Assembly (NCBI GenBank): GCA_016699085.1
Contig: CP064958.1
Coordinates: 540,619-604,618, forward strand
Reading direction: 5' to 3'
Source: Candidatus Nomurabacteria bacterium
Lineage (GTDB): Bacteria > Patescibacteriota > Minisyncoccia > Phycocordibacterales > UBA9973
Length of the DNA stretch: 64,000 nucleotides
Shown here: piece after piece, positions 965-61,566 of the stretch
How the letters are laid out: each line of letters starts with the position of its first letter
Position numbering within the stretch: position 1 is the stretch's first letter
The notes under the pieces: model-generated
Databases searched by the model: none
What the model was told of the DNA's origin: nothing
The model's input: the letters and a program-made list of their open reading frames with translations, nothing else
Translations under genes and position numbers: made by a program

Positions 965-1140
965 AAGTGTAATGGGGTCTAAGCTATATCTGAACAAAGC
1001 ACCACAATATATGGTGCTTTGTTTGATGCTCCCTCTGGTGGACAAGTTCAGAACCCTCAATTGGATTCAAATTAAAAGAGATTTAGAGTTTTCTAAAATT
1101 TTTGAGGTATTCCCAATGGTAGCACTTCAGAAATCATAAT

Positions 1141-1178
1141 AAAAAAAAAGACCCGCCCAAGAGCAGGTCTTTTTAAAA
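1141..1178. terminator. bidirectional intrinsic terminator (A-run, GC hairpin agacc..ggtct, T-run)
   Basis: aaaaaaaaagacccgcccaagagcaggtctttttaaaag between convergent genes 554..964 and 1185..1457. Confidence 0.7.
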
Positions 1179-1184
1179 GTCGAT

Positions 1185-1457
1185 TTATAATTTTTCGGCA
1201 ACAACCTTACCTTTCTCGGTCAGATAATAGTACCCTTTGTTGTCTAATTCTCCGAATGAGAAACCAATGAGTTTCATATCCCAGAGGTTGCCACATGGTG
1301 TTCCTGTAAATATTTTTTCTCGTTCATCGAGAGTAATATCTACATCGCCTTTCTTTTTAGTTTCTTTAATAATTTTTTCTTCAGCACTTGAGATTTGAAT
1401 TGATAGTGTACTTTTTATTTGTTTGTGGAGGTTTTTTTCAATTATGATTGTTTTCAT
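1185..1457 (-). CDS. hypothetical protein (90 aa) driven by family-B promoter/leader
   Basis: ATG ORF; conserved leader hairpin ends about 8 nt upstream of the start. Confidence 0.5.
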   Translation of the reverse strand: MKTIIIEKNLHKQIKSTLSIQISSAEEKIIKETKKKGDVDITLDEREKIFTGTPCGNLWDMKLIGFSFGELDNKGYYYLTEKGKVVAEKL

Positions 1458-1571
1458 TTTTTACTTGATTGGTTTCCATAAACCCCAATAAAGGATCTCT
1501 GAAAACCAATCAAATACATGTGAAAGGGCAGTGCTGTTCATATAATACTTATAATATATGTATTTGTCAAA
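1458..1571 (-). promoter_or_regulatory. family-B module: sigma70-like promoter (TTGACA-N17-TATTAT, minus sense) plus conserved 5'-leader hairpin TTGATTGGTTTCC...GGAAACCAATCAA
   Basis: rc of tgtcaa at 1565-1570 and rc of ataata at 1542-1547; inverted repeat ttgattggtttcc / gaaaaccaatcaa at 1467-1513; same module at 4247-4369 and 10506-10627. Confidence 0.65.
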
Positions 1572-1575
1572 CCTT

Positions 1576-1605
1576 GCTCCGAACATGGGTTGACTAAGGA
1601 AACCG
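1576..1605 (+). repeat. family-A-like palindromic element (gctccgaac...ggaaaccg)
   Basis: Shares the CTCCGAAC core with repeats listed below. Confidence 0.5.
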
Positions 1606-1607
1606 AA

Positions 1608-2057
1608 TTAATACACAGTCGGAAACTCAGCAACTGATTCATATTGATACGATGGCGAGGTGTAGTCGGGGAGTGCCTCCTCAAAAGTTTTACGCAGTAC
1701 TAGGTAGGAGTTTTCACCTTTAGTTATCTTAAACCATTGTCCCAACCCAGCTGCATAGCACTGAATCTTGCTGGAACCCGCTACGATATCCGTATCTTCC
1801 TCTGAAGGAAGGATATCATTACAAGAACCATCGACCTCGTCAATTTCTTTTGAAAGCACCTTTCCATTGGCATTCATTGCATCCAAGAAAATTTTAGTAC
1901 CTGGTATACCATCAAGATTTAAAGCGCCTTCTTGATATCGCCATGTAAAAGATACAAGTGGAGCTTGTTTTATAGTAGTAGATTTATATCCCCCTATGCC
2001 TACATAGGTAGCTATAGCTAATATCACAATCACGAGAACTATTGCAATTCTTTTCAT
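1608..2057 (-). CDS. membrane-anchored hypothetical protein
   Basis: ORF with N-terminal TM; the track start at 2081 is TTG, so the ATG at 2057 is preferred. Confidence 0.45.
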   Translation of the reverse strand: MKRIAIVLVIVILAIATYVGIGGYKSTTIKQAPLVSFTWRYQEGALNLDGIPGTKIFLDAMNANGKVLSKEIDEVDGSCNDILPSEEDTDIVAGSSKIQCYAAGLGQWFKITKGENSYLVLRKTFEEALPDYTSPSYQYESVAEFPTVY

Positions 2058-2130
2058 AAAAAAAGTATAGCACAGGTTCAAATTCTTAGTTTTGGCAACA
2101 AAAAAACTTACAGACTAAGAGTACTTAATT

Positions 2131-2178
2131 GTCCGAACCTACTTGTTTATCCTTCAACAGGGGAGGATACTCGGAAAG
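2131..2178 (+). repeat. family-A palindromic element (gtccgaacc...ctcggaaag)
   Basis: Terminal inverted cores ccgaac / ctcgg around a variable centre, upstream of the arsR promoter. Confidence 0.55.
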
Positions 2179-2207
2179 TTTCCAAAACAAATTTAAAATA
2201 AAAGTCA

Positions 2208-2235
2208 TTGACTTTATAAAATACTTTGCTATAAT
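2208..2235 (+). promoter_or_regulatory. sigma70-like promoter TTGACT-N16-TATAAT for the ArsR-family gene
   Basis: ttgactttataaaatactttgctataat located about 25 nt upstream of ATG 2260. Confidence 0.6.
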
Positions 2236-2259
2236 AATTTCAAACAAAAACTAAGCGTT

Positions 2260-2577
2260 ATGGCAGAAAAAAACGGTTTGACCAATGTAAAATTGGTCGC
2301 ATCTATTTTACGTGCTCTCAATCATAAGTTGAGACAGAGCATGATGGAATTAATGGAGAATAAGCCGGGAATCACCGTCACAGAAATATACGCCAAGTTG
2401 CACTTGGAACAGTCTGTGGCATCACAACATCTTGCTATCCTGCGACAGGCGGGAATTGTAAAGATCGAACGAGACAAGAAAATGATTCGCTATTCTTTAA
2501 ACAAGGAGCGAATCAAAGAAATCGATTTGCTGCTTCAAAAAATTGTTGCAGGGCATAAGTCGATAACCAAAGCCTGA
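2260..2577 (+). CDS. ArsR/SmtB-family HTH transcriptional regulator
   Basis: Classic ArsR helix-turn-helix: TVTEIYAKLHLEQSVASQHLAILRQAGIV. Confidence 0.85.
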   Translation: MAEKNGLTNVKLVASILRALNHKLRQSMMELMENKPGITVTEIYAKLHLEQSVASQHLAILRQAGIVKIERDKKMIRYSLNKERIKEIDLLLQKIVAGHKSITKA

Positions 2578-2582
2578 GTCAA

Positions 2583-2612
2583 AAAAGCATCCCAAAATAC
2601 CGGGGTGCTTCT
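2583..2612 (+). terminator. intrinsic terminator after the ArsR gene
   Basis: gcatcccaaaataccggggtgc hairpin followed by ttcttctttt. Confidence 0.5.
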
Positions 2613-2620
2613 TCTTTTGT

Positions 2621-2676
2621 CAGACCTTCACCACATTCACAATGTTCACGTGCTCCGAATGTGAATGTTCGGAGAG
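2621..2676 (+). repeat. family-A element with a short palindromic core (ctccgaa tgtgaatg ttcggag)
   Basis: ccttcaccacattcacaatgttcac module followed by a perfect 7-bp inverted repeat. Confidence 0.65.
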
Positions 2677-2719
2677 TAATAATTGAAACTACTAGTTAAA
2701 CAATAACAGTAAATTACCT

Positions 2720-3169
2720 TTATTTCTCAGCTAACTGCTTTAATGTTTCTAGGGCTTTTGGCCACATACCGTTAAACATATCCTTGTACTCATCTTTCAC
2801 GTTAATGTCTATAATCAATTCAGTTCCACCATCTTTTTCCTTGAACGTGTAGTTTTCAAAATACAACTCATCAGGTCCATAGCTATTTTCCTTGCCCTGC
2901 ATGATTTCACCCGAGTATTTGATAGAAATAAATTCACCTGGTCTGGATTCTTGTATTTTTCCGATCATCCCTGAAATAGTGCCATTTTTTTCCTTGCCTA
3001 AAAACTTAATATCACTTCCTTCATCCCAACCACCTTCAACATATGATTGTGCTGTGGGGTCAGGATTAAAAACTGATGTCCATTGCTTGTATGTTTCTTC
3101 GCCTAGCATTGTGTCCCAAACTTTTTGCTGAGGAGCATTGATATCAATTGTATAGTGTAAATGTTCCAT
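2720..3169 (-). CDS. SRPBCC superfamily protein (AHSA1/Aha1-like START fold)
   Basis: About 150 aa with polyketide-cyclase/Aha1-like pattern (HYTIDINAPQQKVWD...); ArsR-SRPBCC pairs are a known association; track start 3214 is GTG and ATG 3169 is preferred. Confidence 0.65.
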   Translation of the reverse strand: MEHLHYTIDINAPQQKVWDTMLGEETYKQWTSVFNPDPTAQSYVEGGWDEGSDIKFLGKEKNGTISGMIGKIQESRPGEFISIKYSGEIMQGKENSYGPDELYFENYTFKEKDGGTELIIDINVKDEYKDMFNGMWPKALETLKQLAEK

Positions 3170-3237
3170 ATGTGTATTATTGATTATTCTAATAAAGTTA
3201 TTATAACAAAACACCTGCTTTTAACAGATGTGTCTTG

Positions 3238-3296
3238 TTGGCTCCGAACCTGCTCGCCCGACCTCTGGTGGGGAGGATAATCAGAAGAGTTTGGCA
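3238..3296 (+). repeat. family-A element (ggctccgaacc-tgctcgcccgacctctggtgggg-...)
   Basis: Same core and inner cccgacctctggyggg module as copies at 6371, 7471 and 10630. Confidence 0.65.
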
Positions 3297-3304
3297 AGGA
3301 AGTA

Positions 3305-3330
3305 AAAAAACCTGCTGGTGCAGGTTTTAA
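3305..3330 (-). terminator. intrinsic terminator for gene 3350..3805
   Basis: aaaaaaacctgctggtgcaggtttt. Confidence 0.6.
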
Positions 3331-3349
3331 GCTAATCTTTAGCTAATGG

Positions 3350-3805
3350 TTAGTGATAGAGTACTACTTGTGGATCTGCTTTCTCAATTGCGCTGAAGAT
3401 TATTGGAAGATGAGCTTTGTTCCAAAGTTTCTCTTCCAAAGAGAGTGCAATAGGGCCACTGTTCTGTATTTTGTTTAAGCAGCTCTGAAGTGTACTGATA
3501 TCTTCTATTTCATTCTCTGCATGCAATTTGTAACAGACAATGCCATGGTAAGTATGGTCACTCTTCTTTATTTCAATGATCTCACCAAGTTTTCTCTGTC
3601 TAAAATAATTAAACTCTGGAACTATTTTAGTTTTAACAAGTAATCCTGCAAAACTACTCACTCCTTTTTTTGCGTAAAATTGGCTGCTTAAATCGTTGTA
3701 TCCTGAGGGTGGGTACATATAGATACCATCTGTATTCAGGAGCACTGCAATGTCATGGCACCTAGTTGTGAGAATTGATTCGAGGGATACGTGTTTGAGT
3801 AGCAT
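3350..3805 (-). CDS. hypothetical protein (151 aa)
   Basis: ATG ORF with its own promoter; no recognisable motif. Confidence 0.45.
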   Translation of the reverse strand: MLLKHVSLESILTTRCHDIAVLLNTDGIYMYPPSGYNDLSSQFYAKKGVSSFAGLLVKTKIVPEFNYFRQRKLGEIIEIKKSDHTYHGIVCYKLHAENEIEDISTLQSCLNKIQNSGPIALSLEEKLWNKAHLPIIFSAIEKADPQVVLYH

Positions 3806-3849
3806 AGCTTTATTTATTGATTAGGAATGTGAAAAAACTATCTGGATAT

Positions 3850-3878
3850 ATACTACAATATCATTTTATTTAGTCAAC
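3850..3878 (-). promoter_or_regulatory. promoter TTGACT-N17-TAGTAT (minus sense) for gene 3350..3805
   Basis: rc of agtcaa at 3873-3878 and rc of atacta at 3850-3855. Confidence 0.55.
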
Positions 3879-3881
3879 TCA

Positions 3882-3913
3882 TGCTCCAAGCTTGGGAGGA
3901 TATTCGGAAGGGG
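3882..3913 (+). repeat. family-A element (gctccaagcttgggaggatattcggaagggg)
   Basis: Abuts the -35 box of the promoter above. Confidence 0.55.
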
Positions 3914-3967
3914 ATGGTAAAAATAAAAAGCCAACTAAATGAGTTGGCTTCTCTAATCATTTCCTTC

Positions 3968-4246
3968 TCAACAAAAAAGAAATTCCTTACACTTGTCTCT
4001 AACGGCTCTACAATGACTCATTTGTTTTAAGGTAGTGATAATTTCTAAATTTGGCTTATCTTTTTTGAGCAAAATGTTGACTGCGAAAAGAGCTTCTTCA
4101 TCTGAATATTCATTATTTTTAGCCTTAGCTATCTTATATAGTTCATCATCGGACATTTTTTTGATTTGCCTTTTCTTCTGTTCATTTTGTACTTCAGTGG
4201 CAAGATTTTTTAGCTCTTCATCAGTCATGGTTTTTGTTTCTTTCAT
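3968..4246 (-). CDS. hypothetical Lys/Glu-rich protein (92 aa), family-B leader
   Basis: Preferred start ATG at 4246 (MKETK...), because the upstream 66 nt are the conserved leader hairpin; the track ORF extends to 4312. Confidence 0.4.
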   Translation of the reverse strand: MKETKTMTDEELKNLATEVQNEQKKRQIKKMSDDELYKIAKAKNNEYSDEEALFAVNILLKKDKPNLEIITTLKQMSHCRAVRDKCKEFLFC

Positions 4247-4369
4247 TTTATTACGTATTGAATTGGTTCCCACAAAAGCCAGAAGCTTCTCTGGAAACCA
4301 ATCAAATACCATGTGAAAGGGCAGTGCTGTTCTCTACATTACTACGATATTGTTTTTTGTCAAACCTTC
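4247..4369 (-). promoter_or_regulatory. family-B promoter (TTGACA-N17-TAATGT) plus leader hairpin
   Basis: tttgtcaaa at 4355-4363; leader ttggttcc...ggaaaccaatcaa at 4263-4305. Confidence 0.55.
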
Positions 4370-4392
4370 CTTCGGACATGTCTCTTCCTGCC

Positions 4393-4505
4393 AGGTTCAC
4401 AACATACACAACGTTCACTTGACTCCGAACTTGGGACGATGCTCCCGATTTATTAAATTGTACTCAATTTGTTTAAATCGCAGTCCTGTTAAGGGTTCGG
4501 AAAGA
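4393..4505 (+). repeat. family-A long variant (ccttcacaacatacacaacgttcac + gactccgaac...gatttattaaattgtactcaatttgtttaaatcgcag...gggttcggaaag)
   Basis: Near-identical 110-nt copy at 8300-8411 and a mosaic copy at 6371-6497. Confidence 0.75.
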
Positions 4506-4544
4506 GTTTGATAGAAAATTAAAAAGACCAACACTCGGTTGGTC

Positions 4545-4868
4545 TTAAATCAGACTCGGATCATTCTTGAACAAAAAAGGTTTTCTCTTTTCAATAAATT
4601 GGATAATCAGTAAGCATAAGACTCCCATAAGTGCGTTATACCAAATACAATCTACTGAATAAGCGTTGCTTTTTATTTTGAAAAGCCAAACAAAAATTGC
4701 TGAAATAGAGGTGCCAAAGAAAAACTGACTAAGGAGCTCTAATCCCTTAACACGCTTTACTAATAGAGAGACAAGTATTGTTATGACAAATAACAATACT
4801 GTGAAATAAAACCAATGTTCATGACTGTCGTTGCGAAAATGGAAAAGTTCACAGAAGAAATTTTGCAC
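4545..4868 (-). CDS. small integral membrane protein (hypothetical)
   Basis: Two or three TM segments; GTG start. Confidence 0.4.
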   Translation of the reverse strand: MQNFFCELFHFRNDSHEHWFYFTVLLFVITILVSLLVKRVKGLELLSQFFFGTSISAIFVWLFKIKSNAYSVDCIWYNALMGVLCLLIIQFIEKRKPFLFKNDPSLI

Positions 4869-4936
4869 AGCTATTAAGTTTTATAGTGTTAAAGAACTGA
4901 TATTATAATAGCATAAAATATTACAATAGTCAACTA

Positions 4937-4963
4937 TGTTCCGAACGTGGATGTTCGGAAGGG
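4937..4963 (+). repeat. family-A short element (gttccgaacgtggatgttcggaaggg)
   Basis: Perfect inverted cores ttccgaac / gttcggaa next to the -35 box (rc TTGACT) of gene 4545..4868. Confidence 0.6.
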
Positions 4964-4986
4964 TCTATCAAGAAAAGTTAATCACT

Positions 4987-5793
4987 CTATAAAAAGTATT
5001 TATAGGTAAGGAGGATGATTCCGATAAGAGAAAGAGATACAGAAAGGACTTTTGCACTTTTATCTGGTAGCTTATTAAGTATTTTTTTTCCATAGTGTTG
5101 AGCTAATAGTAGGAAGGGGATAACGGTAACTACAAGGATAAGGTCTCTTGCATTAAGATGGTTATGAAATAGAATAATAATTCCAGTTACAAAAAACACT
5201 GAAAGTCCAAGAGTTGAGCCAATTGCTCGCACAGAGACTTCAGAAACTACTGTTCGCAAGTAATTGTTTCTAATATCTGCCCCAGGTAAACCTCCCCCTT
5301 GTAGAAAACCAGAAAATAGTGCAACCATACTAAGCTTTGCTCTGTGCACAGACTCAATTGGTGTTTGGTCTGTTGAAACGTGTCGAAGTGTCTTGTAGAT
5401 AAAATATATTGATGCAATTACAACGACTGCAGCTAAAAGTTTTGCACTCATATATGAAATAAGGGTACCACCTAAGATTGCTCCAATGATTGAGAAGGGC
5501 ATAAGAGCTTTTACAATATCCAGATTCCTCTTTTCAGTAAATGCTTCTTTTCTAAATAAATAGACTCGATGTATACCACTAAAGAAAAAAATAAATGCAC
5601 CAATCCCTATTGCTCTTTGGGGGTCTGTAAAGAACGCAGTTACAGGATTGATAATCATTGATCCAGAAGTTTGAACAACGATGTTTATAAATGTTGTAGC
5701 AATAAGCCAAATATATACAAAAAGATACTCAGAAAGAAAATCTGTTAGTATAGTCATCGGATCACTGTAACATAGTTTTCTGAGAGTGACCAT
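4987..5793 (-). CDS. TauE/SafE (DUF81) family membrane permease
   Basis: Polytopic membrane protein with the GxGGGxxxxP motif (FLQGGGLPGA). Confidence 0.6.
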   Translation of the reverse strand: MVTLRKLCYSDPMTILTDFLSEYLFVYIWLIATTFINIVVQTSGSMIINPVTAFFTDPQRAIGIGAFIFFFSGIHRVYLFRKEAFTEKRNLDIVKALMPFSIIGAILGGTLISYMSAKLLAAVVVIASIYFIYKTLRHVSTDQTPIESVHRAKLSMVALFSGFLQGGGLPGADIRNNYLRTVVSEVSVRAIGSTLGLSVFFVTGIIILFHNHLNARDLILVVTVIPFLLLAQHYGKKILNKLPDKSAKVLSVSLSLIGIILLTYKYFL

Positions 5794-5803
5794 GCAGCTC
5801 TAA

Positions 5804-5858
5804 AACCTTCACAACATACACAACGTTCACTTGCTCCGAACGTGGATGCTCGGAAGAG
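5804..5858 (+). repeat. family-A element (ccttcacaacatacacaacgttcac + gctccgaacgtggatgctcggaagag)
   Basis: Conserved module immediately upstream of ATG 5793. Confidence 0.7.
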
Positions 5859-5909
5859 TATTAGTCAAATAAAATAATAGATTTCGTATGATTATTAAAT
5901 GATTCAAAA

Positions 5910-5945
5910 ACAAAAAAGATACCTGCTCCTACAGATATCTTTTAC
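5910..5945 (-). terminator. intrinsic terminator for gene 5964..6296
   Basis: minus sense aaagatatctgtaggagcaggtatcttttttg. Confidence 0.6.
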
Positions 5946-5963
5946 ATACAAAGTCAGAAGATT

Positions 5964-6296
5964 TTAAACTCCAAGTAATTTTTTAGACTTCAAAATTCCT
6001 TCAGGGTCAAAGGGGGTGTTTAGTTGTCGAACAATCCTTGCTCTTGAAACTTCAAGCTCCACTTCCTTCTCAACTGAATGATTAAGGATTTCACTTTTTA
6101 AATCTGGCACATCGTTCTGCATTTCTATTACTGAAGTAAGTAATTCAAGAAATGTATCCTTGTCGATTGAATGATTTCCAAACTTCCCACAAATAAACCT
6201 AATCGCCCCTAATCGACTTTCGTAAAAATTAGATTGAATATTGTTGATAATTATAGCAACCAACAAGCCATTTTCCGAAATTAAAACGTTTTTCAT
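5964..6296 (-). CDS. hypothetical protein (110 aa)
   Basis: ATG ORF with promoter TTGACT-N16-TAGTAT (rc of 6330-6366). Confidence 0.4.
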   Translation of the reverse strand: MKNVLISENGLLVAIIINNIQSNFYESRLGAIRFICGKFGNHSIDKDTFLELLTSVIEMQNDVPDLKSEILNHSVEKEVELEVSRARIVRQLNTPFDPEGILKSKKLLGV

Positions 6297-6370
6297 ATAT
6301 ATGGGTTTATGTGAAAGTTTGACTTAACAATTTAAACCAATACTACGATATTATTCTATTTAGTCAATGG

Positions 6371-6497
6371 TGCTCCGAACTTGCCTGCCCGACCTCTGGC
6401 GGGGGATGATGCTCCCGATTTATTAGATTGTACTCAATTTGTTTAAATCGCAGTTGATTCAACAGGATCATACTAGGTACACGGAAGGGTTCGGAAA
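6371..6497 (+). repeat. family-A mosaic element (v2 head gctccgaacttgcctgcccgacctctggcggggg joined to v1 tail gatgctcccgatttatta...gggttcggaaaa)
   Basis: Chimeric structure shows the repeat units are modular. Confidence 0.75.
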
Positions 6498-6505
6498 ATT
6501 TTAAA

Positions 6506-7042
6506 TTAACTATTCGCTAGAAACCAAGTTATCTCTTCACTGACACTGGCAAACAAATCATCAAGTTCTTTACTTACACCTCTACACGCATTCGCAACTT
6601 TTTTTACACCTTCAAATCTTTCCAGCCTTTCCTCCTTACTCATTAGTGTATTCTTGGCATCTAATTCACCTCCAGAAATTTGATCCGCAATCTTTATCCG
6701 TCGTACCGACTCACTTTCTTTAGAAATTTTTTCTGCCTGTATTGCTTTTCTTTCACCCACAGGAAGATTTTTCCATTCAGGAGAATCAGTTAAACCATTC
6801 ACCATGGTTGCAATATGTTTACCAAATTCTCTCTCGATATCTTCTATCGTTACACCAGTATCTTCCACAGTGTCATGCAGCCAGGCTGCAGCAATCTCTT
6901 CTTCACTGCCTCCTGATAACTGTACTAGACTAGCAACTCTTTGAAGATGAAAATAATATGGTGTTTTGAATGCATCACTTTCGGTGTGATTTTTGTGAGC
7001 TTCTTTGGCAAACTGCTTTGCTTTTTCGATAAGTGTAGTCAT
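6506..7042 (-). CDS. stand-alone HD-domain (p)ppGpp hydrolase (small alarmone hydrolase, Mesh1/SpoT-hydrolase-like)
   Basis: HD motifs YYFHLQRVA...AAWLHDTVEDT...IEREFG are paralogous to the N-terminal hydrolase domain of the RelA/SpoT gene at 49063..50583. Confidence 0.7.
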   Translation of the reverse strand: MTTLIEKAKQFAKEAHKNHTESDAFKTPYYFHLQRVASLVQLSGGSEEEIAAAWLHDTVEDTGVTIEDIEREFGKHIATMVNGLTDSPEWKNLPVGERKAIQAEKISKESESVRRIKIADQISGGELDAKNTLMSKEERLERFEGVKKVANACRGVSKELDDLFASVSEEITWFLANS

Positions 7043-7059
7043 TAGTAGATTATAGAAAG

Positions 7060-7431
7060 TTAATTTCGATAGATCTCAATTCGTATTCCATCTGGGTCAT
7101 CAAGCCAGATGTATTCATTACCAAATTTGCCTAGTTTTATTTCACTGTGTTCTATATCAACTTCAGAAAGAAGTTTTTGAAATTGTTTTAGTTCATCTAT
7201 TGTTTTTACACCAAAGCCAATATGGTTCATGCCAATACTATCCTTATCGTACTCTCTATCCGAAACATCTTTTGGACTTAGCTTGAAAAACAATCTGGTC
7301 TCTCCAACCTTATACACGACCATGTGTTCATCATGAATAATCGGTTTAGGCAGGAATTTTGAGTAAAACTCTGCAGTCCTACTTATATCTCTAACTATTA
7401 AAGACATGTGATCAATAAATGCTGGTTGCAT
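7060..7431 (-). CDS. VOC (glyoxalase/bleomycin-resistance/dioxygenase) family protein
   Basis: IDHMSLIVRDI...NHIGFGV...IWLDDPDGIRIEI pattern. Confidence 0.75.
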   Translation of the reverse strand: MQPAFIDHMSLIVRDISRTAEFYSKFLPKPIIHDEHMVVYKVGETRLFFKLSPKDVSDREYDKDSIGMNHIGFGVKTIDELKQFQKLLSEVDIEHSEIKLGKFGNEYIWLDDPDGIRIEIYRN

Positions 7432-7470
7432 GGTTGGATTATAGCAGATTGAGAAAGCTTATCTCCTGCA

Positions 7471-7548
7471 AACCTTCACAACATACACAACGTTCACAGG
7501 CTGCGAACTTGCCTGCCCGTCCTCTGGCGGGGGATGATGTTCGGAAGA
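7471..7548 (+). repeat. family-A element (ccttcacaacatacacaacgttcac + gctgcgaacttgcctgcccgtcctctggcgggggatgatgttcggaagaa)
   Basis: Lies in the divergent promoter region between 7060..7431(-) and 7642..8244(+). Confidence 0.7.
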
Positions 7549-7641
7549 ATTTATTGATATAGTTATATTGACAATTTAATTTAAAAATGTTACTATTTCA
7601 CTAGTAAATAAGTTCATTAAATCACATAAACTAATAACATA

Positions 7642-8244
7642 ATGAAAAAAGCTATTCAACCTCAAGGGTTTGGTGAAGGACTAACTGTCCCGATGCCTAA
7701 AATCTGGGTATCAGATGATGACATGATTGACCAAAAGGTTGGAATTCACATGTGTGAATTCCATGAAGATTGTGATCCTGCTCCAGGATGGAAGAGAAAA
7801 GATGTAAGTATGACTGGGAATTGTAACTGTCACCTTAAAGGAACAACAGTGACAATAACTGGTCTGAAAGCAACCAGTCGTGCCACCTTTTATCGTTCCA
7901 CCTGTTACACGATTGCTGAAGATAAAAACCTTATTCATGAATCTGAATTTTCATCTGAAAAAGAAGACTCAGCAGGGGTTTCGGGCTATGTACTGGAAAA
8001 TGAAAAGGGTCAGTTACTTACTGCTGCGTATACATATACCTCAGCTATTAAACAGCCTCTGTTTGGATATGTATTCAATACTGGTCTTCTTAAGATCATG
8101 TTAAAAAACGGACTTGCAGTAGGTAATCCTATTAAGGCCTGGCCTGTAAAATGTAAAAACAATGAGGGTAGCAAAAGATCCTTAAATGGATCATCCCTCA
8201 CATGGCAGGAATTAGCAAATGTTATTTTAGTGAAAAAGAAATAA
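7642..8244 (+). CDS. hypothetical Cys/His-containing protein (200 aa)
   Basis: ATG ORF preceded by TTGACA-N17-TACTAT. Confidence 0.45.
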   Translation: MKKAIQPQGFGEGLTVPMPKIWVSDDDMIDQKVGIHMCEFHEDCDPAPGWKRKDVSMTGNCNCHLKGTTVTITGLKATSRATFYRSTCYTIAEDKNLIHESEFSSEKEDSAGVSGYVLENEKGQLLTAAYTYTSAIKQPLFGYVFNTGLLKIMLKNGLAVGNPIKAWPVKCKNNEGSKRSLNGSSLTWQELANVILVKKK

Positions 8245-8299
8245 TAAAGAAAAGATTGTTTAAGCCAAACCGAAAGGGGAGGCTTTTTCTTTTCCCCCA

Positions 8300-8411
8300 C
8301 ACCTTCACAACATACACAACGTTCACTTGACTCCGAACTTGGGACGATGCTCCCGATTTATTAAATTGTACTCAATTTGTTTAAATCGCAGTCCTGTTAA
8401 GGGTTCGGAAA
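8300..8411 (+). repeat. family-A long variant, near-identical to 4393-4505
   Basis: More than 100 nt identical; preceded by the ggctttttcttttcccc element. Confidence 0.8.
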
Positions 8412-8465
8412 TCCTTGTTTGACACGGTATTGAGTGTATAGTAGGTTTAGTAAAATTATACTGAC

Positions 8466-9137
8466 ATGAAATACATCGATTTAACTCATACACTTTCATC
8501 ACCTATCCCAAGCTGGGATGGAGATTGTTGCTTTACTGCTCCTATTGTTTACGATTATAAGGATTCAAAAGAACCCAATCTATTCCGTATCCATAGAATC
8601 GAGGCAAAAGCTGGTTGTGGTACGCATATGGACGCTCCTGCACACTGTATTCCTGGTGGGAAGACTATCGATACCCTCGATCTTGATACTCTCTTAGTTG
8701 ATTGTATTGTTATCGACATCTCTGAATCTGCACATGAAAAGTATGTTGCTGGTTTAGATTGTATTGAAACTTTTGAGAGGGAACACGGCAAAGTGCCAGT
8801 AGGAAGCTTCGTGATTTTCTATACTGGTTGGGACAAGTATTGGGATGATAAAGAAAAATATCGCAACAATCTAAACTTCCCAAGTATTAGTGAAGATGTT
8901 GCCAAGTTTCTTATTGAGAGAAATGTTTCTGGTGTTGGTATTGATACCTTGTCACCAGATGCAGTCGGTAATGATTTTCCAGTACACCGCGTAATGCTTG
9001 GGGCAGGAAAGTACATTGTTGAAAATGTTGCAAATGCAGGGATGTTGCCTGCAACTGGTGCAAAAATTTCTGTCATGCCAATAAAGATAAAAGATGGCAC
9101 AGAAGCACCAATACGACTTGTCGCTCAGATTCAGTAA
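8466..9137 (+). CDS. cyclase-family protein / kynurenine (aryl)formamidase-like
   Basis: HxGTHxDxPxH motif (GCGTHMDAPAHC) of PF04199. Confidence 0.75.
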   Translation: MKYIDLTHTLSSPIPSWDGDCCFTAPIVYDYKDSKEPNLFRIHRIEAKAGCGTHMDAPAHCIPGGKTIDTLDLDTLLVDCIVIDISESAHEKYVAGLDCIETFEREHGKVPVGSFVIFYTGWDKYWDDKEKYRNNLNFPSISEDVAKFLIERNVSGVGIDTLSPDAVGNDFPVHRVMLGAGKYIVENVANAGMLPATGAKISVMPIKIKDGTEAPIRLVAQIQ

Positions 9138-9184
9138 GGCTTCTTTTAAAAGATCTCTCAAATGGGATCTTTTTCTTTTCCCCA

Positions 9185-9242
9185 GACCTTCACCACATGC
9201 ACAACATTCACTAGCTCCGAACTTGGGATGTTTGGAGGGTGG
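9185..9242 (+). repeat. family-A element (ccttcaccacatgcacaacattcac + gctccgaacttgggatgtttggagggtgg)
   Basis: Diverged copy. Confidence 0.6.
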
Positions 9243-9298
9243 AGCATAATATTGACAATAGTGCATATATAGTATATAATATATAAAAATTTAAGAGT

Positions 9299-9604
9299 AT
9301 GAAAAAGCACTATTTCTTTGTCACAGCTGATTTCAAATTTAGGAAAAAATATGTTAACACACAATATGATTCCCATCCAACTGATGTGTGGAGGTTTGAT
9401 CAGAAAGAGACCTACATGATTGAGCAAAAAAAAGATGAAACGGATGAAATTTTCTTCCCAGCTCTAAAAAAGTATATTACCGATGCTTTGGATGCATATG
9501 CGGATTCGTGGCTTGCTCAAAGTAATTCAAAAGTACCGCAAGATAGTGGGTGGCAATGGGCAAAAGACAGTGTTAGCTTGATAACCTTTTCAAAGTTAAA
9601 CTAA
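9299..9604 (+). CDS. hypothetical protein (101 aa)
   Basis: ATG ORF. Confidence 0.4.
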   Translation: MKKHYFFVTADFKFRKKYVNTQYDSHPTDVWRFDQKETYMIEQKKDETDEIFFPALKKYITDALDAYADSWLAQSNSKVPQDSGWQWAKDSVSLITFSKLN

Positions 9605-9648
9605 CATCTGAGTGTTGTGAGAAGTCTTGCATTATAGGCAAGGCTTTT

Positions 9649-9679
9649 TCTTTTCCCCAGACCTTCACAACGTTCACTT
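9649..9679 (+). repeat. family-A head (ccccagaccttcacaacgttcacttg) truncated by the 176-bp repeat
   Basis: Element interrupted exactly where ggctcgggaggtaggg begins. Confidence 0.6.
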
Positions 9680-9855
9680 GGCTCGGGAGGTAGGGTGATC
9701 TTTCGTTACACGAACAGTAGACCTTTTTGAAATGTTCAGAATATATTCTTCACATTTAGCAAAAAGCTTTTCGATCCCTACACGAAAGCCAAGCAGTTGG
9801 CTTTCTCTCCCTCGCCACAAAAACTAAAAACCCCCGAAGGGGTCTAAAGTTTTTG
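9680..9855 (+). repeat. 176-bp direct repeat copy 1, starting with a 16-nt copy of the tRNA-Asn 3' end (ggctcgggaggtaggg)
   Basis: Copy 2 at 11657-11832 lies exactly 1977 bp away; contains hairpins gaaagccaagcagttggctttc and ccccgaagggg and an inverted tRNA T-arm fragment ttcgatccctac. Confidence 0.85.
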
Positions 9856-9886
9856 GGCTCCGAACTTGGGATGATGTTCGAATGAA
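9856..9886 (+). repeat. family-A core (gggctccgaacttgggatgatgttcgaatg) directly after repeat copy 1
   Basis: Sits in the position that the tRNA body occupies after copy 2. Confidence 0.55.
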
Positions 9887-9950
9887 TATAATGAGGAAAT
9901 AAAAAAGCCCTTTATATCACTAAATGAGAAAGGGCTTTAATAAGTGAAAA

Positions 9951-10505
9951 TCAAAGTTTATTTATTTCGTTTGCAATCTCTAAAAGTTTAGGATCGTTAG
10001 TTTTACAAAGAAAAAATAATTGCTCATAATTTTCTGGTGTAGTAGGATTCTGAGCTTTTAATTTTTCAAGGATTTTAGTTGTTAAATTAAACCACTCGGC
10101 CTCAAGTCTTTTTTCAAGAAGAGAGGCTTTTGCACCCCATCCCATTTTTGAAGAGTCTTCATAGACGTTTTTTATCAGTCTAACTTGATCTAGATCATCT
10201 TCTTTTTTGATATTTGCAAGAAGTTTATTAAACGCAATATACATTTGAAGACAGATGAGATCTTTTATTTCCTGAGAAGCTACACTAACCTTTTCGCCAC
10301 TATAACCAAATGCATTTACACCATAATAAAGACTTATGTAATGTTTTAGTTCTCTGCATTTTGCTAGCACAGCTTTAGTTTCTTCAAGATCCCATTCCCA
10401 AATGTGGATACTATTAGCTTTGCTAACTAGATTTTCAATTGGAGAATCAAGAATGATTTCCATCTTTGTTGCACCTTGTCCCTGTGCTTTTTTAAAGAGT
10501 TGCAT
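9951..10505 (-). CDS. hypothetical protein (184 aa), family-B leader
   Basis: Preferred start ATG 10505 (MQLFKK...) placed after the conserved leader; the track start 10568 is TTG. Confidence 0.45.
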   Translation of the reverse strand: MQLFKKAQGQGATKMEIILDSPIENLVSKANSIHIWEWDLEETKAVLAKCRELKHYISLYYGVNAFGYSGEKVSVASQEIKDLICLQMYIAFNKLLANIKKEDDLDQVRLIKNVYEDSSKMGWGAKASLLEKRLEAEWFNLTTKILEKLKAQNPTTPENYEQLFFLCKTNDPKLLEIANEINKL

Positions 10506-10627
10506 AATTTTGTGTTTATTTGATTGGTTTCCACAAAAGCCATTTATGCTCCTCTGAAAACCAATCAAATACTATGTGAAAGGGCCGTACTGCTTATACA
10601 ATACTGTAATATCTTAATTTGTCAAAT
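10506..10627 (-). promoter_or_regulatory. family-B promoter (rc tttgtcaaa) plus leader hairpin tttgattggtttcc...gaaaaccaatcaa
   Basis: Third copy of the module. Confidence 0.6.
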
Positions 10628-10629
10628 TT

Positions 10630-10680
10630 TGCTCCGAACTTGCTTGCCCGACCTCTGGCGGGGGATGATGTTCGGAAGAG
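10630..10680 (+). repeat. family-A element (gctccgaacttgcttgcccgacctctggcgggggatgatgttcggaagag)
   Basis: Same variant as at 6371 and 7495. Confidence 0.7.
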
Positions 10681-10705: not shown

Positions 10706-11599
10706 ATGAACTCTAACCTCGCCCCAGAAATATTTCGCAAACGCCTTATTATTGAAGGGAAATACACGGTTGAAATAAAAGAGGAGCAATTTGTCACTGA
10801 TTTCCTCTCTGATCTCTCTAGAGAGCTTGGAATGACAATTATTGCTGGCCCATTTATTTCGAGTGCCACAGGTAAGTCGGTACCCCTTCATGATGGTTAT
10901 GAAGGTTCACTTGTGTGGGCAGAATCAGGAGCAAACACATATATTTGGACACGTTCGAAATTCTGCACCGTTGATATTTATTCATGCAAGGAATTTGATT
11001 CAGAAAAAGCAATCAGTTTTATAAAAGAACGATTTGGCATTATAGAATTTTCATATTTTGAATTACCAGACCCTATGGCTTCAAAGCAAGATTCTCGAAT
11101 CGTATTACGACAAAGTGAAAATAAGGGGAACGGTGTTTTTGCCAATAAGGCAATACCTCAAGGAACAGTCGTTTCTTATGTGGATGGACAGATTCACTAC
11201 GCTCAAAAAGAATCTGAAGTATATGTGCATGCTTCAAATCACGCAGTTCCTTTTCATAAATATTTTTATAGAAATGGCTTCAACACAGACGCAGTCAAAT
11301 TAAATCACTCGTGTGAACCAAATTGCTATGTAAAAGATTTATTTTTCGTGACAACCATGCGAGATATACAAGCTGGGGAAGAACTTACATACTGTTATGG
11401 GCTTTTCTGTAACTCTGATTGGGAAAATCCCGAAGGTGTGTGTCATTGTGGTTCTAAAGAATGTCTTGGAAAAATTCTGCCATGGAGAGAGCTCCCTCAA
11501 GACTTTAAGATTAAATACTTTGACTACACCGCTGATTGGATTTTGTTTGATGAAATAAAGAATAAAGGACTTCTTGAAGAACTAAAGAAAAGCATTTAG
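10706..11599 (+). CDS. fusion protein: N-terminal pyruvoyl-type S-adenosylmethionine decarboxylase-like domain (SpeH/AdoMetDC fold) plus C-terminal SET-domain lysine methyltransferase with post-SET Cys cluster
   Basis: SET: GNGVFA, NHSCEPNC, GEELTYCYG, CHCGSKEC. N-terminal: LVWAESGANTYIWTRSKFCTVDIYSCKEFD aligns to the AdoMetDC VVIAESHLTIHTWPE...AVDVFTCGD pattern including the ES self-cleavage site. Confidence 0.75.
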   Translation: MNSNLAPEIFRKRLIIEGKYTVEIKEEQFVTDFLSDLSRELGMTIIAGPFISSATGKSVPLHDGYEGSLVWAESGANTYIWTRSKFCTVDIYSCKEFDSEKAISFIKERFGIIEFSYFELPDPMASKQDSRIVLRQSENKGNGVFANKAIPQGTVVSYVDGQIHYAQKESEVYVHASNHAVPFHKYFYRNGFNTDAVKLNHSCEPNCYVKDLFFVTTMRDIQAGEELTYCYGLFCNSDWENPEGVCHCGSKECLGKILPWRELPQDFKIKYFDYTADWILFDEIKNKGLLEELKKSI

Positions 11600-11656
11600 G
11601 TTAGAATTTCTAAAAAGGTAACAAAAAATCACCTTGTTTTGAAAGGTGATTTTTCT

Positions 11657-11832
11657 GGCTCGGGAGGTAGGGTGATCTTTCGTTACACGAACAGTAGACC
11701 TTTTTGAAATGTTCAGAATATATTCTTCACATTTAGCAAAAAGCTTTTCGATCCCTACACGAAAGCCAAGCAGTTGGCTTTCTCTCCCTCGCCACAAAAA
11801 CTAAAAACCCCCGAAGGGGTCTAAAGTTTTTG
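11657..11832 (+). repeat. 176-bp direct repeat copy 2, abutting tRNA-Asn
   Basis: Identical to 9680-9855 as far as I can read. Confidence 0.85.
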
Positions 11833-11834
11833 GG

Positions 11835-11906
11835 CTCGGGAGGTAGGGATCGAACCTACGACCAACCGCTTAACAGGCGGTCGCTCTACCGCTGAGCTAC
11901 TCCCGA
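11835..11906 (-). tRNA. tRNA-Asn (GTT)
   Basis: Cloverleaf read by hand: acceptor TCGGGAG/CTCCCGA, anticodon loop CTGTTAA, T-loop TTCGATC. Confidence 0.85.
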
Positions 11907-12065
11907 ATCTATTTAAAGAAGGCTGTTTCGGCATCCTCTGCCTTCTCTACTCTTTAACCACTGAATAATTTTCTAACATTCTCATATAAGAATGTGCAAT
12001 TATCCTAGCAAAATTAGGCATAAAAAGCAAAAACAGGCATATATGCCTGTTTACTGTTAATTTCC

Positions 12066-32300: not shown

Positions 32301-32852
32301 TTATATTTCATAGATATACAACGTATGGTATCCGCGAGGCAATGAATATTTTTTTGTCTCGATCGGGGCGAGATCTTTAAACTTAAAGTCACATGAGACG
32401 ATACGAGTGCCAGGCTTGAGTTCCTGCCTTAGTTTAGGTAGCAATGCATCCATAACTTTTGGTAAGAGGTACATAAAAATATGTGTGGCATTATGAATAT
32501 CTACGTTAAAAAAATCTCCGTGGATGAGTGTTAGATTTCTCTTTGACCAAAAGGTATTCCAAAACTTTGCAGTGTAGTAGGGAAGGTCTGCCCACTCAAC
32601 ACCGACCGTATGGATAGTTTTGTTTCTTTTCATAGCGTAGCGAAGCGCTCGGCTGTCGCCACAACCGAGGTCATACAGGATGGCATCCGGAGACAAATGT
32701 AATTCCTCGTAAATATAGGGGAGCATTTTCTCTGGAACTGGCAGAAATGGGACCTTGGTTTTGGCTTTGCCTCGAATAAGCATAATGAGCGCTATGAGCT
32801 CAAAGAGGATAGTGATGATGAGGAGAGTAAGGAAAATATAGTAGAGGGTCAT
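32301..32852 (-). CDS. class I SAM-dependent methyltransferase with N-terminal TM anchor
   Basis: ILYDLGCGDSRALRYA motif I; ATG 32852 preferred; the longer track ORF runs into the tRNA-Lys-linked element. Confidence 0.6.
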   Translation of the reverse strand: MTLYYIFLTLLIITILFELIALIMLIRGKAKTKVPFLPVPEKMLPYIYEELHLSPDAILYDLGCGDSRALRYAMKRNKTIHTVGVEWADLPYYTAKFWNTFWSKRNLTLIHGDFFNVDIHNATHIFMYLLPKVMDALLPKLRQELKPGTRIVSCDFKFKDLAPIETKKYSLPRGYHTLYIYEI

Positions 32853-32930
32853 GAGATGATTTTTGAAATTAATACTTGCGACCCCGCCTCGGCACCGACG
32901 TGCCTGCGGCTCGCACAAGTCCATCTTTGT

Positions 32931-33016
32931 GGTCAGGAATAGTTTTCTACTGAAAACTTTCCCGACCCTGGCTCGCGCCGTCGCGCTCCGCCTCGCACAA
33001 AGTGCCCCGCACTTTG
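32931..33016 (-). repeat. tRNA-linked conserved element, copy at tRNA-Lys (hairpin ggtcaggaatagttttctactgaaaactttcccgacc plus GC module ctcgcgccgtcgcgctccgcctcg)
   Basis: Same family as 45911-46036, 47705-47837 and 61421-61566; the most diverged copy. Confidence 0.7.
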
Positions 33017-47704: not shown

Positions 47705-47837
47705 GTGCCCAGAGAGAGAATCGGTCACGAGTATTTTTCTACTGAAAAATCTCGCGACCCCGCCTCGTGTCGCCACGCTCCGGCTTTCGATTCTCTTGAC
47801 CATTATAAAAACACTTCAAAAAGAAGTGTTTTTATAA
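47705..47837 (-). repeat. tRNA-linked conserved element, copy at tRNA-Leu(CAA): 19-nt duplicate of the tRNA 3' end, hairpin ggtcacgagtatttttctactgaaaaatctcgcgacc, GC module, then a perfect palindrome cattataaaaacacttc/gaagtgtttttataatg
   Basis: gtgcccagagagagaatcg appears at 47705 and again as the tRNA 3' end at 47840. Confidence 0.85.
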
Positions 47838-61420: not shown

Positions 61421-61566
61421 GCTGGGGGACAGGGATTCGGTCACAGGTATTTTTCTACTGAAAAATCTCGCGACCCTGCCTCGCACCGTCGTGCTCCGGC
61501 TTTCGAATCCCAACCCGCCCCATCGATGCAAATTTGCAATAGAAGTATCTATACAAATTTCCATTG
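61421..61566 (-). repeat. tRNA-linked conserved element, copy at tRNA-Gln: 19-nt duplicate of the tRNA 3' end (gctgggggacagggattcg), hairpin gtcacaggtatttttctactgaaaaatctcgcgacc, GC module ctgcctcgcaccgtcgtgctccggctttcgaatcc
   Basis: Duplicate of 61564-61582; the track ORF 61391..61705 is spurious. Confidence 0.85.

Follow-up and report, generated by a model that had tools for sequence, protein, structure and literature searches.

A promoter and leader-hairpin module before unrelated genes of a cassette array in Candidatus Nomurabacteria

Why should genes that are unrelated to each other be preceded by the same stretch of DNA? The question is raised by an island in the genome of a Candidatus Nomurabacteria bacterium (the public name on a protein identical to the first gene described below), where three such genes each follow the same sequence of about 130 nucleotides (nt), here called module B. 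We analysed the 64,000 nt that contain this island (contig CP064958.1 of assembly GCA_016699085.1, positions 540,619 to 604,618 of the forward strand), hereafter the window. Module B joins a cassette-boundary half-site, a sigma70-like promoter and a long leader hairpin. We lean, with modest confidence, towards regarding it as the 5' end of a subset of self-expressed cassettes, with a transcribed hairpin that would act after transcription.

One module before unrelated genes

The window holds three copies of module B, all on the minus strand and each directly 5' of an unrelated ORFan (Table 1). A copy comprises, in this order, the half-site GTTCGGAGC, a sigma70-like promoter, a conserved 5' segment of about 20 nt and a two-part hairpin of 55 nt. 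An earlier note on this DNA had claimed that one module stands in front of three unrelated genes; we found it at the places named, and base-by-base alignment confirmed its conservation from GTTCGGAGC, about 12 nt 5' of the -35 hexamer, to the 3' foot of the hairpin. Similarity among the window copies ends 4-10 nt 5' of three different ATGs. The segment between the -10 hexamer and the inverted repeat reads CAGCACTGCCCTTTCACAT, the leader of copy 2 having one extra base relative to the others. The 20-mer CAGCACTGCCCTTTCACATG occurs three times in the 64 kb at up to three mismatches, versus zero expected occurrences.

The promoters read TTGACA-N17-TATTAT (copy 1), TTGACA-N16-TAATGT (copy 2) and TTGACA-N16-TATTGT (copy 3), and the hexamers match the sigma70 consensus at 11 of 12 positions in copy 1 and at 10 of 12 in copy 3; on direct reading, the -10 hexamer of copy 2 keeps A-11 and T-7. 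All three spacers lie within the 16-18 nt typical of such promoters. The hexamers given by the earlier note (TTGACA with TATTAT or TAATGT) were recovered, its N17 spacer in copy 1 only. Direct reading revealed no -10-like box between hairpin and ATG in the window copies, so that the nearest promoter lies upstream of the hairpin, which should then belong to the mRNA. We thus infer from the sequence that the promoter fires and that the hairpin is part of the message: the transcript would begin about 20 nt 5' of a long, nearly perfect RNA hairpin.

The three cargo proteins are unrelated, the best alignment in an all-against-all BLASTP covering 29 aa (E=0.014), and searches of Pfam, NCBIfam and PADLOC gave no family for any of them. 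The protein identical to that of open reading frame (ORF) 1 is annotated as hypothetical in a Candidatus Nomurabacteria metagenome-assembled genome, and no homologue of ORF 3 was found among 5.8 billion proteins.

Four further copies of the module were found in related metagenomic strains, three of them 5' of other unrelated ORFs and one 5' of an orthologue of ORF 1 (76% identical, in L032) that likewise has the hairpin upstream. One of them (L004) was the single match of an exact-pattern scan of metagenomes. A covariance search for the leader beyond the window, as proposed in the earlier note, recovered the other three: the model, built from L004 and the three window copies, found diverged copies in the related-strain contigs L030, L032 and L033, with scores of 66-68 bits for L030 and L033 versus about 154 for the seed copies. 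The exact-pattern scan of 185,579 species-representative genomes gave no module match, viral contigs gave two chance 21-mers, both without the hairpin, and BLASTN against plasmids and phages left the module unmatched. Rfam recovered only tRNAs at the gathering threshold and, for the leader at E<=5, only a chance match to the mir-315 hairpin (30 bits versus a threshold of 63). Judged from these searches, the motif has not been described before and is known so far from one lineage. As a kind of element, it resembles known ones by analogy, namely promoters with structured leaders that are borne on cassettes, and promoter/hairpin units of the Correia type.

Could the leader instead be coding? It would then specify either a conserved upstream peptide or a real N-terminal extension of the cargo protein, as in the 114-aa and 205-aa calls, and we regard this as very improbable. 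By direct reading, a frame does remain open through the hairpin in all copies and is in frame with the ORF in copies 2 and 3; in copy 1 and L004 the open frame ends in an ATGA overlapping the main start, the leader stretch of copy 1 being out of frame and stopping at the ATG. But the composition of the arms leaves two of the three frames free of stops, a leader ATG is absent from copy 3 and L004, and a protein search with the leader peptide for mis-started ORFs elsewhere found nothing. Moreover, the lipoprotein signal peptide encoded in L030 begins exactly at the ATG after the hairpin. What led us to reject the upstream peptide is that the copies do not keep one frame: the leader of copy 1 reads LIGFQRS, that of copy 2 VFDWFPEK. 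The suspicion of the earlier note that the ORF calls at 4312 and 10568 are mis-started is very probably right, since the extension is a translated leader whose frame changes from copy to copy; these annotations (114 and 205 aa) should be shortened to start at 4246 and 10505.

The leader hairpin

In the window copies, the hairpin has an outer stem of 17 bp, a 1x1 internal loop and an inner stem of 6-7 bp, i.e., 23-24 bp in total. It is twice as long as the 12-13 bp reported by the earlier note, whose 13-bp arms TTGATTGGTTTYC/GGAAACCAATCAA correspond to the core of the outer stem. The predicted folds have energies of -31 to -33 kcal/mol (z about -4.8), and 0 of 200 shuffled sequences folded as well. 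Over all copies of module B the helix spans 23-29 bp, with its foot 3-15 nt from the AUG and its ends reading GTATTTGA.../...TCAAATAC. All copies, as well as the analogous leaders described below, have predicted helices of 20-29 bp with 1x1 loops, the size of an RNase III substrate, which calls for nearly uninterrupted double-stranded RNA (dsRNA) over at least about 20 bp. An intrinsic terminator or attenuator was rejected, the hairpin being followed by an A-rich sequence without U tract; a terminator scan flagged the inner stem of copy 2 only, and this flag is not conserved.

The earlier note had asked whether such a hairpin is an RNA structure or a palindromic protein operator. In the seven distinct sequences at hand (the three window copies, L004, L030, L032, and L033), standard pairs occupy 95.8% of the alignment cells and 9 of 24 pairs are altered on both sides, that is, by compensatory changes, although these counts are somewhat inflated by an alignment that was fitted to the model. 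In 500 shuffles, not one of the five measures was equalled, and pairing fell to 33-56% when the partner was displaced by 1-3 columns. The centre is conserved in sequence (GGUUUYCAGAG / YUUUUGUGRAAACC, with a G-G 1x1 loop) whereas the outer and apical stems covary. We consider this covariation, read from sequence comparison, as good but not overwhelming evidence for a conserved structure.

Independent support comes from comparing the two strands. The predicted sense fold is more stable than the antisense fold by 8-15 kcal/mol in 6/6 hairpins tested (-28.8 versus -13.7 kcal/mol in copy 1) because G.U pairs, 2-5 in each hairpin and 5 in copy 1, turn into A-C mismatches on the opposite strand. A single G.U pair persists unchanged throughout the set of seven. 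Compensatory changes, conserved G.U pairs and strand asymmetry together favour a transcribed, sense-strand RNA structure over a symmetric double-stranded operator, as far as comparison and modelled folds can tell.

An operator would have the arms TGGTTTYC ... GRAAACCA as half-sites of a dimeric repressor co-regulating the cargo. These arms are indeed the most sequence-conserved part of the hairpin in 7/7 copies, an ArsR-family regulator is encoded in the array (2260-2577), and the L032 orthologue carries an extra perfect palindrome over its -10/start region. Yet the half-sites would lie about 35 bp apart, centre to centre, and 25-80 nt 3' of the transcription start; the covariation of outer and inner stems is not required by an operator; four of the seven copies break the DNA symmetry by a change that forms a G.U pair in RNA; and the antisense strand folds far worse. 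We thus judge an operator to be quite unlikely. The extra palindrome of L032 (923-961; 17 bp, AAAAAGAACTGTATCAT..ATGATACAGTTCTTTTT), which covers the -10 box and the presumed start and is absent from the window copy, looks operator-like on its own account, as it folds equally well on both strands.

Several points weigh against a transcribed leader structure acting on the mRNA. The covariation set, besides its fitted alignment, comprises seven sequences of one lineage, and the conserved central arms (GGTTTYC/GRAAACC) are also compatible with a protein-binding site. The -10 hexamer of copy 2 is weak (3/6 matches), and the transcription start and promoter activity are predictions from consensus matching. 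Finally, pairing of the 5' segment with the AUG exceeded the shuffled controls in copies 1, 2, and L032 but failed to do so in the remaining four; we thus rejected a general sequestration of the start codon by this segment, and no single translational mechanism is evident.

The surrounding cassette array

From position 1 to about 11.8 kb, the window consists of an array of at least 18 single-gene cassettes, in both orientations and variable between strains. Each unit has a promoter-like site, one ORF and usually a terminator. The cassettes are bounded by palindromic sites, CTCCGAAC-spacer-GTTCGGAG, whose spacers measure 6 to 66 nt and which are often preceded by TTCAC-N4-TWCAC-N4-TTCAC (three TTCAC-like repeats with 9-nt spacing). 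These sites are confined to the island, and the array ends at a tRNA-Asn gene. Module B always starts at a GTTCGGAG half-site and therefore forms the 5' end of its cassette; outside cassette 5' boundaries it was found neither elsewhere in the window nor in 30 related loci.

Comparison between strains supports the mobility of these units. The gene-1 cassette (1050-1593) matches L032:890-1428 as one block, with 79% identity and unrelated flanks. In L003, cassette 2 is joined directly to a SET-domain gene that lies 6 kb away from it in the window, and where the window has cassette 3, L030 carries another cassette. Cassette content varies between strains whose neighbouring genes are 99-100% identical (arrays were also found in L030, L033, and L001). 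On these comparisons, the units behave as mobile cassettes that are reshuffled between strains. Among the ORFs at window positions 1-16 kb we found neither an integron integrase nor another recombinase, and neither the window nor 20 kb of L033 yielded any recombinase. The array is probably a more unusual object than module B itself.

Other features of the array are worth recording. One cassette (10706-11599) encodes an unusual fusion of S-adenosylmethionine decarboxylase-like and SET methyltransferase domains. Two exact 182-nt direct repeats (9679-9860 and 11656-11837) each open with 14 nt that repeat the 3' end of tRNA-Asn (CTCGGGAGGTAGGG), the second continuing into the real tRNA-Asn gene; they resemble a trace left by successive integration events at this tRNA. 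A 52-nt unit with its own imperfect hairpin is present inside the spacers of three boundary sites (4433-4484, 6403-6454, 8341-8392), its copies being 96-100% identical, and may be a small insertion element specific to boundary sites.

Two other leaders of the array, called family A, can be aligned with module B over the half-site and the -35 and -10 hexamers, as far as UUUCACAU (Table 1), and both lack the 57-nt hairpin. Family A is thus the same scaffold minus the hairpin, which makes module B a hairpin-bearing subtype of a common cassette promoter. The remaining cassettes have unstructured leaders of 10-45 nt, and a sliding-window fold scan detected no other strand-specific long hairpin in the leaders of the island. 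The portable expression unit proposed in the earlier note holds in that module B precedes unrelated cargo and travels with mobile cassettes; it is not a free-standing element.

The relationship with family A would also fit a neutral history, in which a palindrome of the type of a miniature inverted-repeat transposable element (MITE), or an inverted duplication, was inserted once in a family A-type leader and then copied with the promoter by recombination, without function. The array does contain other small palindromic insertions, such as the 52-nt unit, and on direct reading the hairpin starts and ends with TA. It also has the terminal inverted repeats of a MITE or Correia element (17-bp arms); we found no dispersed copies with target-site duplication in the window, the 30 related loci, the species-representative genomes, plasmids or phages, and all copies share the upstream promoter flank. 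A functionless passenger nevertheless appears unlikely, since the structure survived substantial divergence (the 9/24 compensatory pairs; the 66-68 bits of L030 and L033), with pairing-preserving transitions in the L032 orthologue, since the hairpin was never seen outside the position between promoter and ATG, and since different hairpins occupy the equivalent position in other cassettes and in another class of the Candidate Phyla Radiation (CPR).

The Correia repeats of Neisseria (CREE) are a known case in which a co-transcribed hairpin of long inverted repeats in the 5' untranslated region (UTR) serves RNase III as a binding or cleavage target and influences expression (PMC2649163). Both CREE and module B are short repeats 5' of many unrelated genes, supplying or adjoining a sigma70 promoter and bearing a long inverted-repeat hairpin. 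CREE, however, are transposable, duplicate a TA target and lie dispersed in about 100-250 copies per genome, whereas module B occupies only the cassette 5' boundaries of one array, with a constant upstream flank and no evidence of independent transposition.

The array itself invites comparison with other modular systems. The pdif (Xer-site-flanked) modules of Acinetobacter plasmids are discrete units, bounded by short inverted-arm sites with a 6-bp spacer and reshuffled between replicons. The array resembles them, in its context only, by its discrete gene modules between inverted-arm sites, but it is chromosomal, adjoins tRNA-Asn and has spacers of 6 to 66 nt. With integrons it shares single-gene mobile cassettes, some of which (cmlA) have in integrons their own promoter and structured 5' UTR. 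It differs from them by the lack of IntI and of an attC consensus, by cassettes in both orientations and by a promoter and terminator for essentially each cassette. In integron cassette mRNAs, imperfect hairpins just 5' of the cassette ORF lower its translation (PMC8876359), and promoter cassettes without ORF also exist in integrons (10.1101/427781; 10.1101/2023.11.21.568050).

The hairpin could accordingly be imagined as a DNA-level site, i.e., a folded single-strand recombination (attC-like) or nicking site that lets ORFs be exchanged while the promoter stays fixed, or a promoter-only unit enter 5' of ORFs. Homology between copies stops at the hairpin 3' foot; in L032 it is the promoter-proximal part of the leader that has diverged, the hairpin remaining with the ORF, which places breakpoints on both sides of the hairpin; and a conserved structure with a conserved mismatch, variable apex and strand-specific folding is also an attC trait (PMC8876359). 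Against this, the R''/R' core motifs RYYYAAC ... GTTRRRY are absent from the hairpin ends on direct reading, no integrase or other recombinase was found in window positions 1-16 kb, and the module B hairpin lies inside the cassette, between promoter and ORF, whereas an attC hairpin lies at the recombination site. The array has a different recurrent boundary site, CTCCGAAC...GTTCGGAG, at which the mappable strain differences fall, and two types of site per array would be unparsimonious. We therefore give a DNA-level site a low probability.

Table 1. Coordinates of module B, its cargo genes and associated features (window positions unless a contig is named).
Feature	Position	Strand	Remarks
Module B copy 1	1458..1584	minus	hairpin foot 4 nt from ATG at 1457
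Copy 1 half-site	1576-1584	minus	GTTCGGAGC
Copy 1 -35	1565-1570	minus	TTGACA
Copy 1 -10	1542-1547	minus	TATTAT
Copy 1 conserved 5' segment	1517-1536	minus	CAGCACTGCCCTTTCACATG
Copy 1 leader hairpin	1462..1516	minus	17-bp outer stem, 1x1 loop, 7-bp inner stem, 5-nt loop
Module B copy 2	4247..4376	minus	8 nt between hairpin and ATG at 4246
Copy 2 half-site	4368-4376	minus	degenerate
Copy 2 -35	4358-4363	minus	TTGACA
Copy 2 -10	4336-4341	minus	TAATGT
Copy 2 5' segment	4310-4329	minus
Copy 2 hairpin	4255-4309	minus
Module B copy 3	10506..10639	minus	about 11 nt between hairpin and ATG at 10505
Copy 3 half-site	10632-10639	minus
Copy 3 -35	10620-10625	minus	TTGACA
Copy 3 -10	10598-10603	minus	TATTGT
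Copy 3 5' segment	10573-10592	minus
Copy 3 hairpin	10517-10571	minus
Cargo ORF 1	1185..1457	minus	90 aa, no family
Cargo ORF 2	3968..4246	minus	92 aa, no family; 114-aa call at 4312 runs through leader
Cargo ORF 3	9951..10505	minus	184 aa; 205-aa TTG call at 10568 runs through leader
Whole gene-1 cassette	1050..1593	minus	module B, ORF, terminator (1145-1174), distal boundary site
Family A sister promoter/leader	3810..3897	minus	aligns with module B to UUUCACAU
Family A sister promoter/leader, second	6291..6386	minus	aligns likewise to UUUCACAU
tRNA-Asn gene	11831..11907	minus	array end
Module B copy	L004:515-653		5' of unrelated 137-aa ORF; metagenome contig
Diverged module B copy	L030:9812-9960		5' of lipoprotein
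Diverged module B copy	L032:893-1037		5' of ORF 1 orthologue
Diverged module B copy	L033:8902-9039		5' of 72-aa membrane protein

Structured leaders in the host and in other CPR arrays

What could a long leader helix do in this host? Only 4 of 28 long ORFs outside the island (housekeeping genes, window positions 12000-64000) have a Shine-Dalgarno core, and a -10-like box (TATACT/TATAAT) ends 5-9 nt before the ATG in 10 of 43 ORFs, versus 2.4% at random positions. Leaderless mRNAs or very short leaders thus seem to be common, and a leader of 80-90 nt with a helix of 23-29 bp is unusual for such a largely Shine-Dalgarno-free, often leaderless host. It is because of these habits of the host that we would assign a post-transcriptional role to a stable helix beside the AUG. 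The helix may damp or gate the access of ribosomes, protect the mRNA, or offer a dsRNA target for RNase III-type processing that would set the mRNA half-life or trim the leader. The occurrence of one promoter-leader unit before different ORFs would be explained by recombination, the inter-cassette regions being presumably exchanged or homogenised independently of the ORFs. Since the hairpin keeps its shape in related genomes, the module is probably a portable expression-control unit.

Stable helices in the leader, near the start codon, are familiar from 5'-UTR stabiliser and processing stem-loops. The ompA-type 5' hairpins and the RNase III sites of the lambda N and T7 early phage leaders belong to individual genes, and they are mostly shorter or placed at the extreme 5' end. 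The helix of module B, in contrast, starts about 20 nt into the predicted transcript, has 23-29 bp and is common to unrelated genes.

Long leader hairpins are not limited to module B. In L004, a further cassette has one of unrelated sequence at the equivalent position (166-236), and the Saccharibacteria array L022 includes three cassettes whose long leader hairpins differ in sequence from that of module B; in L022, a promoter-plus-hairpin unit is present in two copies, again 5' of unrelated ORFs. The leader hairpins of CPR cassettes could on this account be the dedicated processing or recombination signal of an undescribed cassette system, which we hold to be unlikely. They might be dsRNA cut sites at which the 80-90-nt leader is trimmed to a near-leaderless mRNA, in hosts whose translated messages are mostly leaderless and Shine-Dalgarno-free, or folded single-strand DNA sites where promoters and ORFs are exchanged, the latter version having the merit that it would account for the breaks of homology at the hairpin foot on either side.

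The L022 array (2302-4021 and 3987-8000) starts at the 3' end of a frameshifted gene for a large serine recombinase (Recombinase, Zn_ribbon_recom), whose last codons (..ADLMFGFQNF) overlap an inter-cassette repeat that recurs four times; this recombinase has no counterpart in the window or the related loci. A scan for TTCAC repeats returned mostly unrelated 8-nt tandem repeats, the genuine loci being five from CPR (L005, L006, L007, L020, and L024), and module B is absent from these five. They share a junction element, TTCACAACATNCACAACGTTCAC-CTCC (L020:392-489; L024:5000-7800; L005:4294; L007:1384; L006:1779), which spans the CPR classes Saccharibacteria, Paceibacterota, and Nomurabacteria and in L020 directly adjoins the tRNA-Asn 3' end. 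This element suggests a conserved tRNA-Asn-targeting cassette system across CPR. A further conserved element, about 70 nt long and predicted to be structured (..GCCGGAGCGCGACGGCGCGAGGCAGGGTCGCGAGATTTTTCAGTAGAAAAATAC.CGTGACC..), occurs three times on the minus strand of the window (47716-47790, 61431-61505, and 32841-32960), just 3' of tRNA-Leu, tRNA-Gln, and tRNA-Lys genes and on the same strand as these; it has no Rfam match at the gathering score.

The expression signals of CPR/Patescibacteria are almost unstudied, and module B provides a concrete, testable unit: a promoter close to the consensus, joined to a 5'-UTR helix of conserved structure, both reused 5' of six or more unrelated cargo genes. 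Should the hairpin gate translation or direct processing, module B would show that mobile cassettes import their own expression control in these bacteria, and it would be a ready-made expression part.

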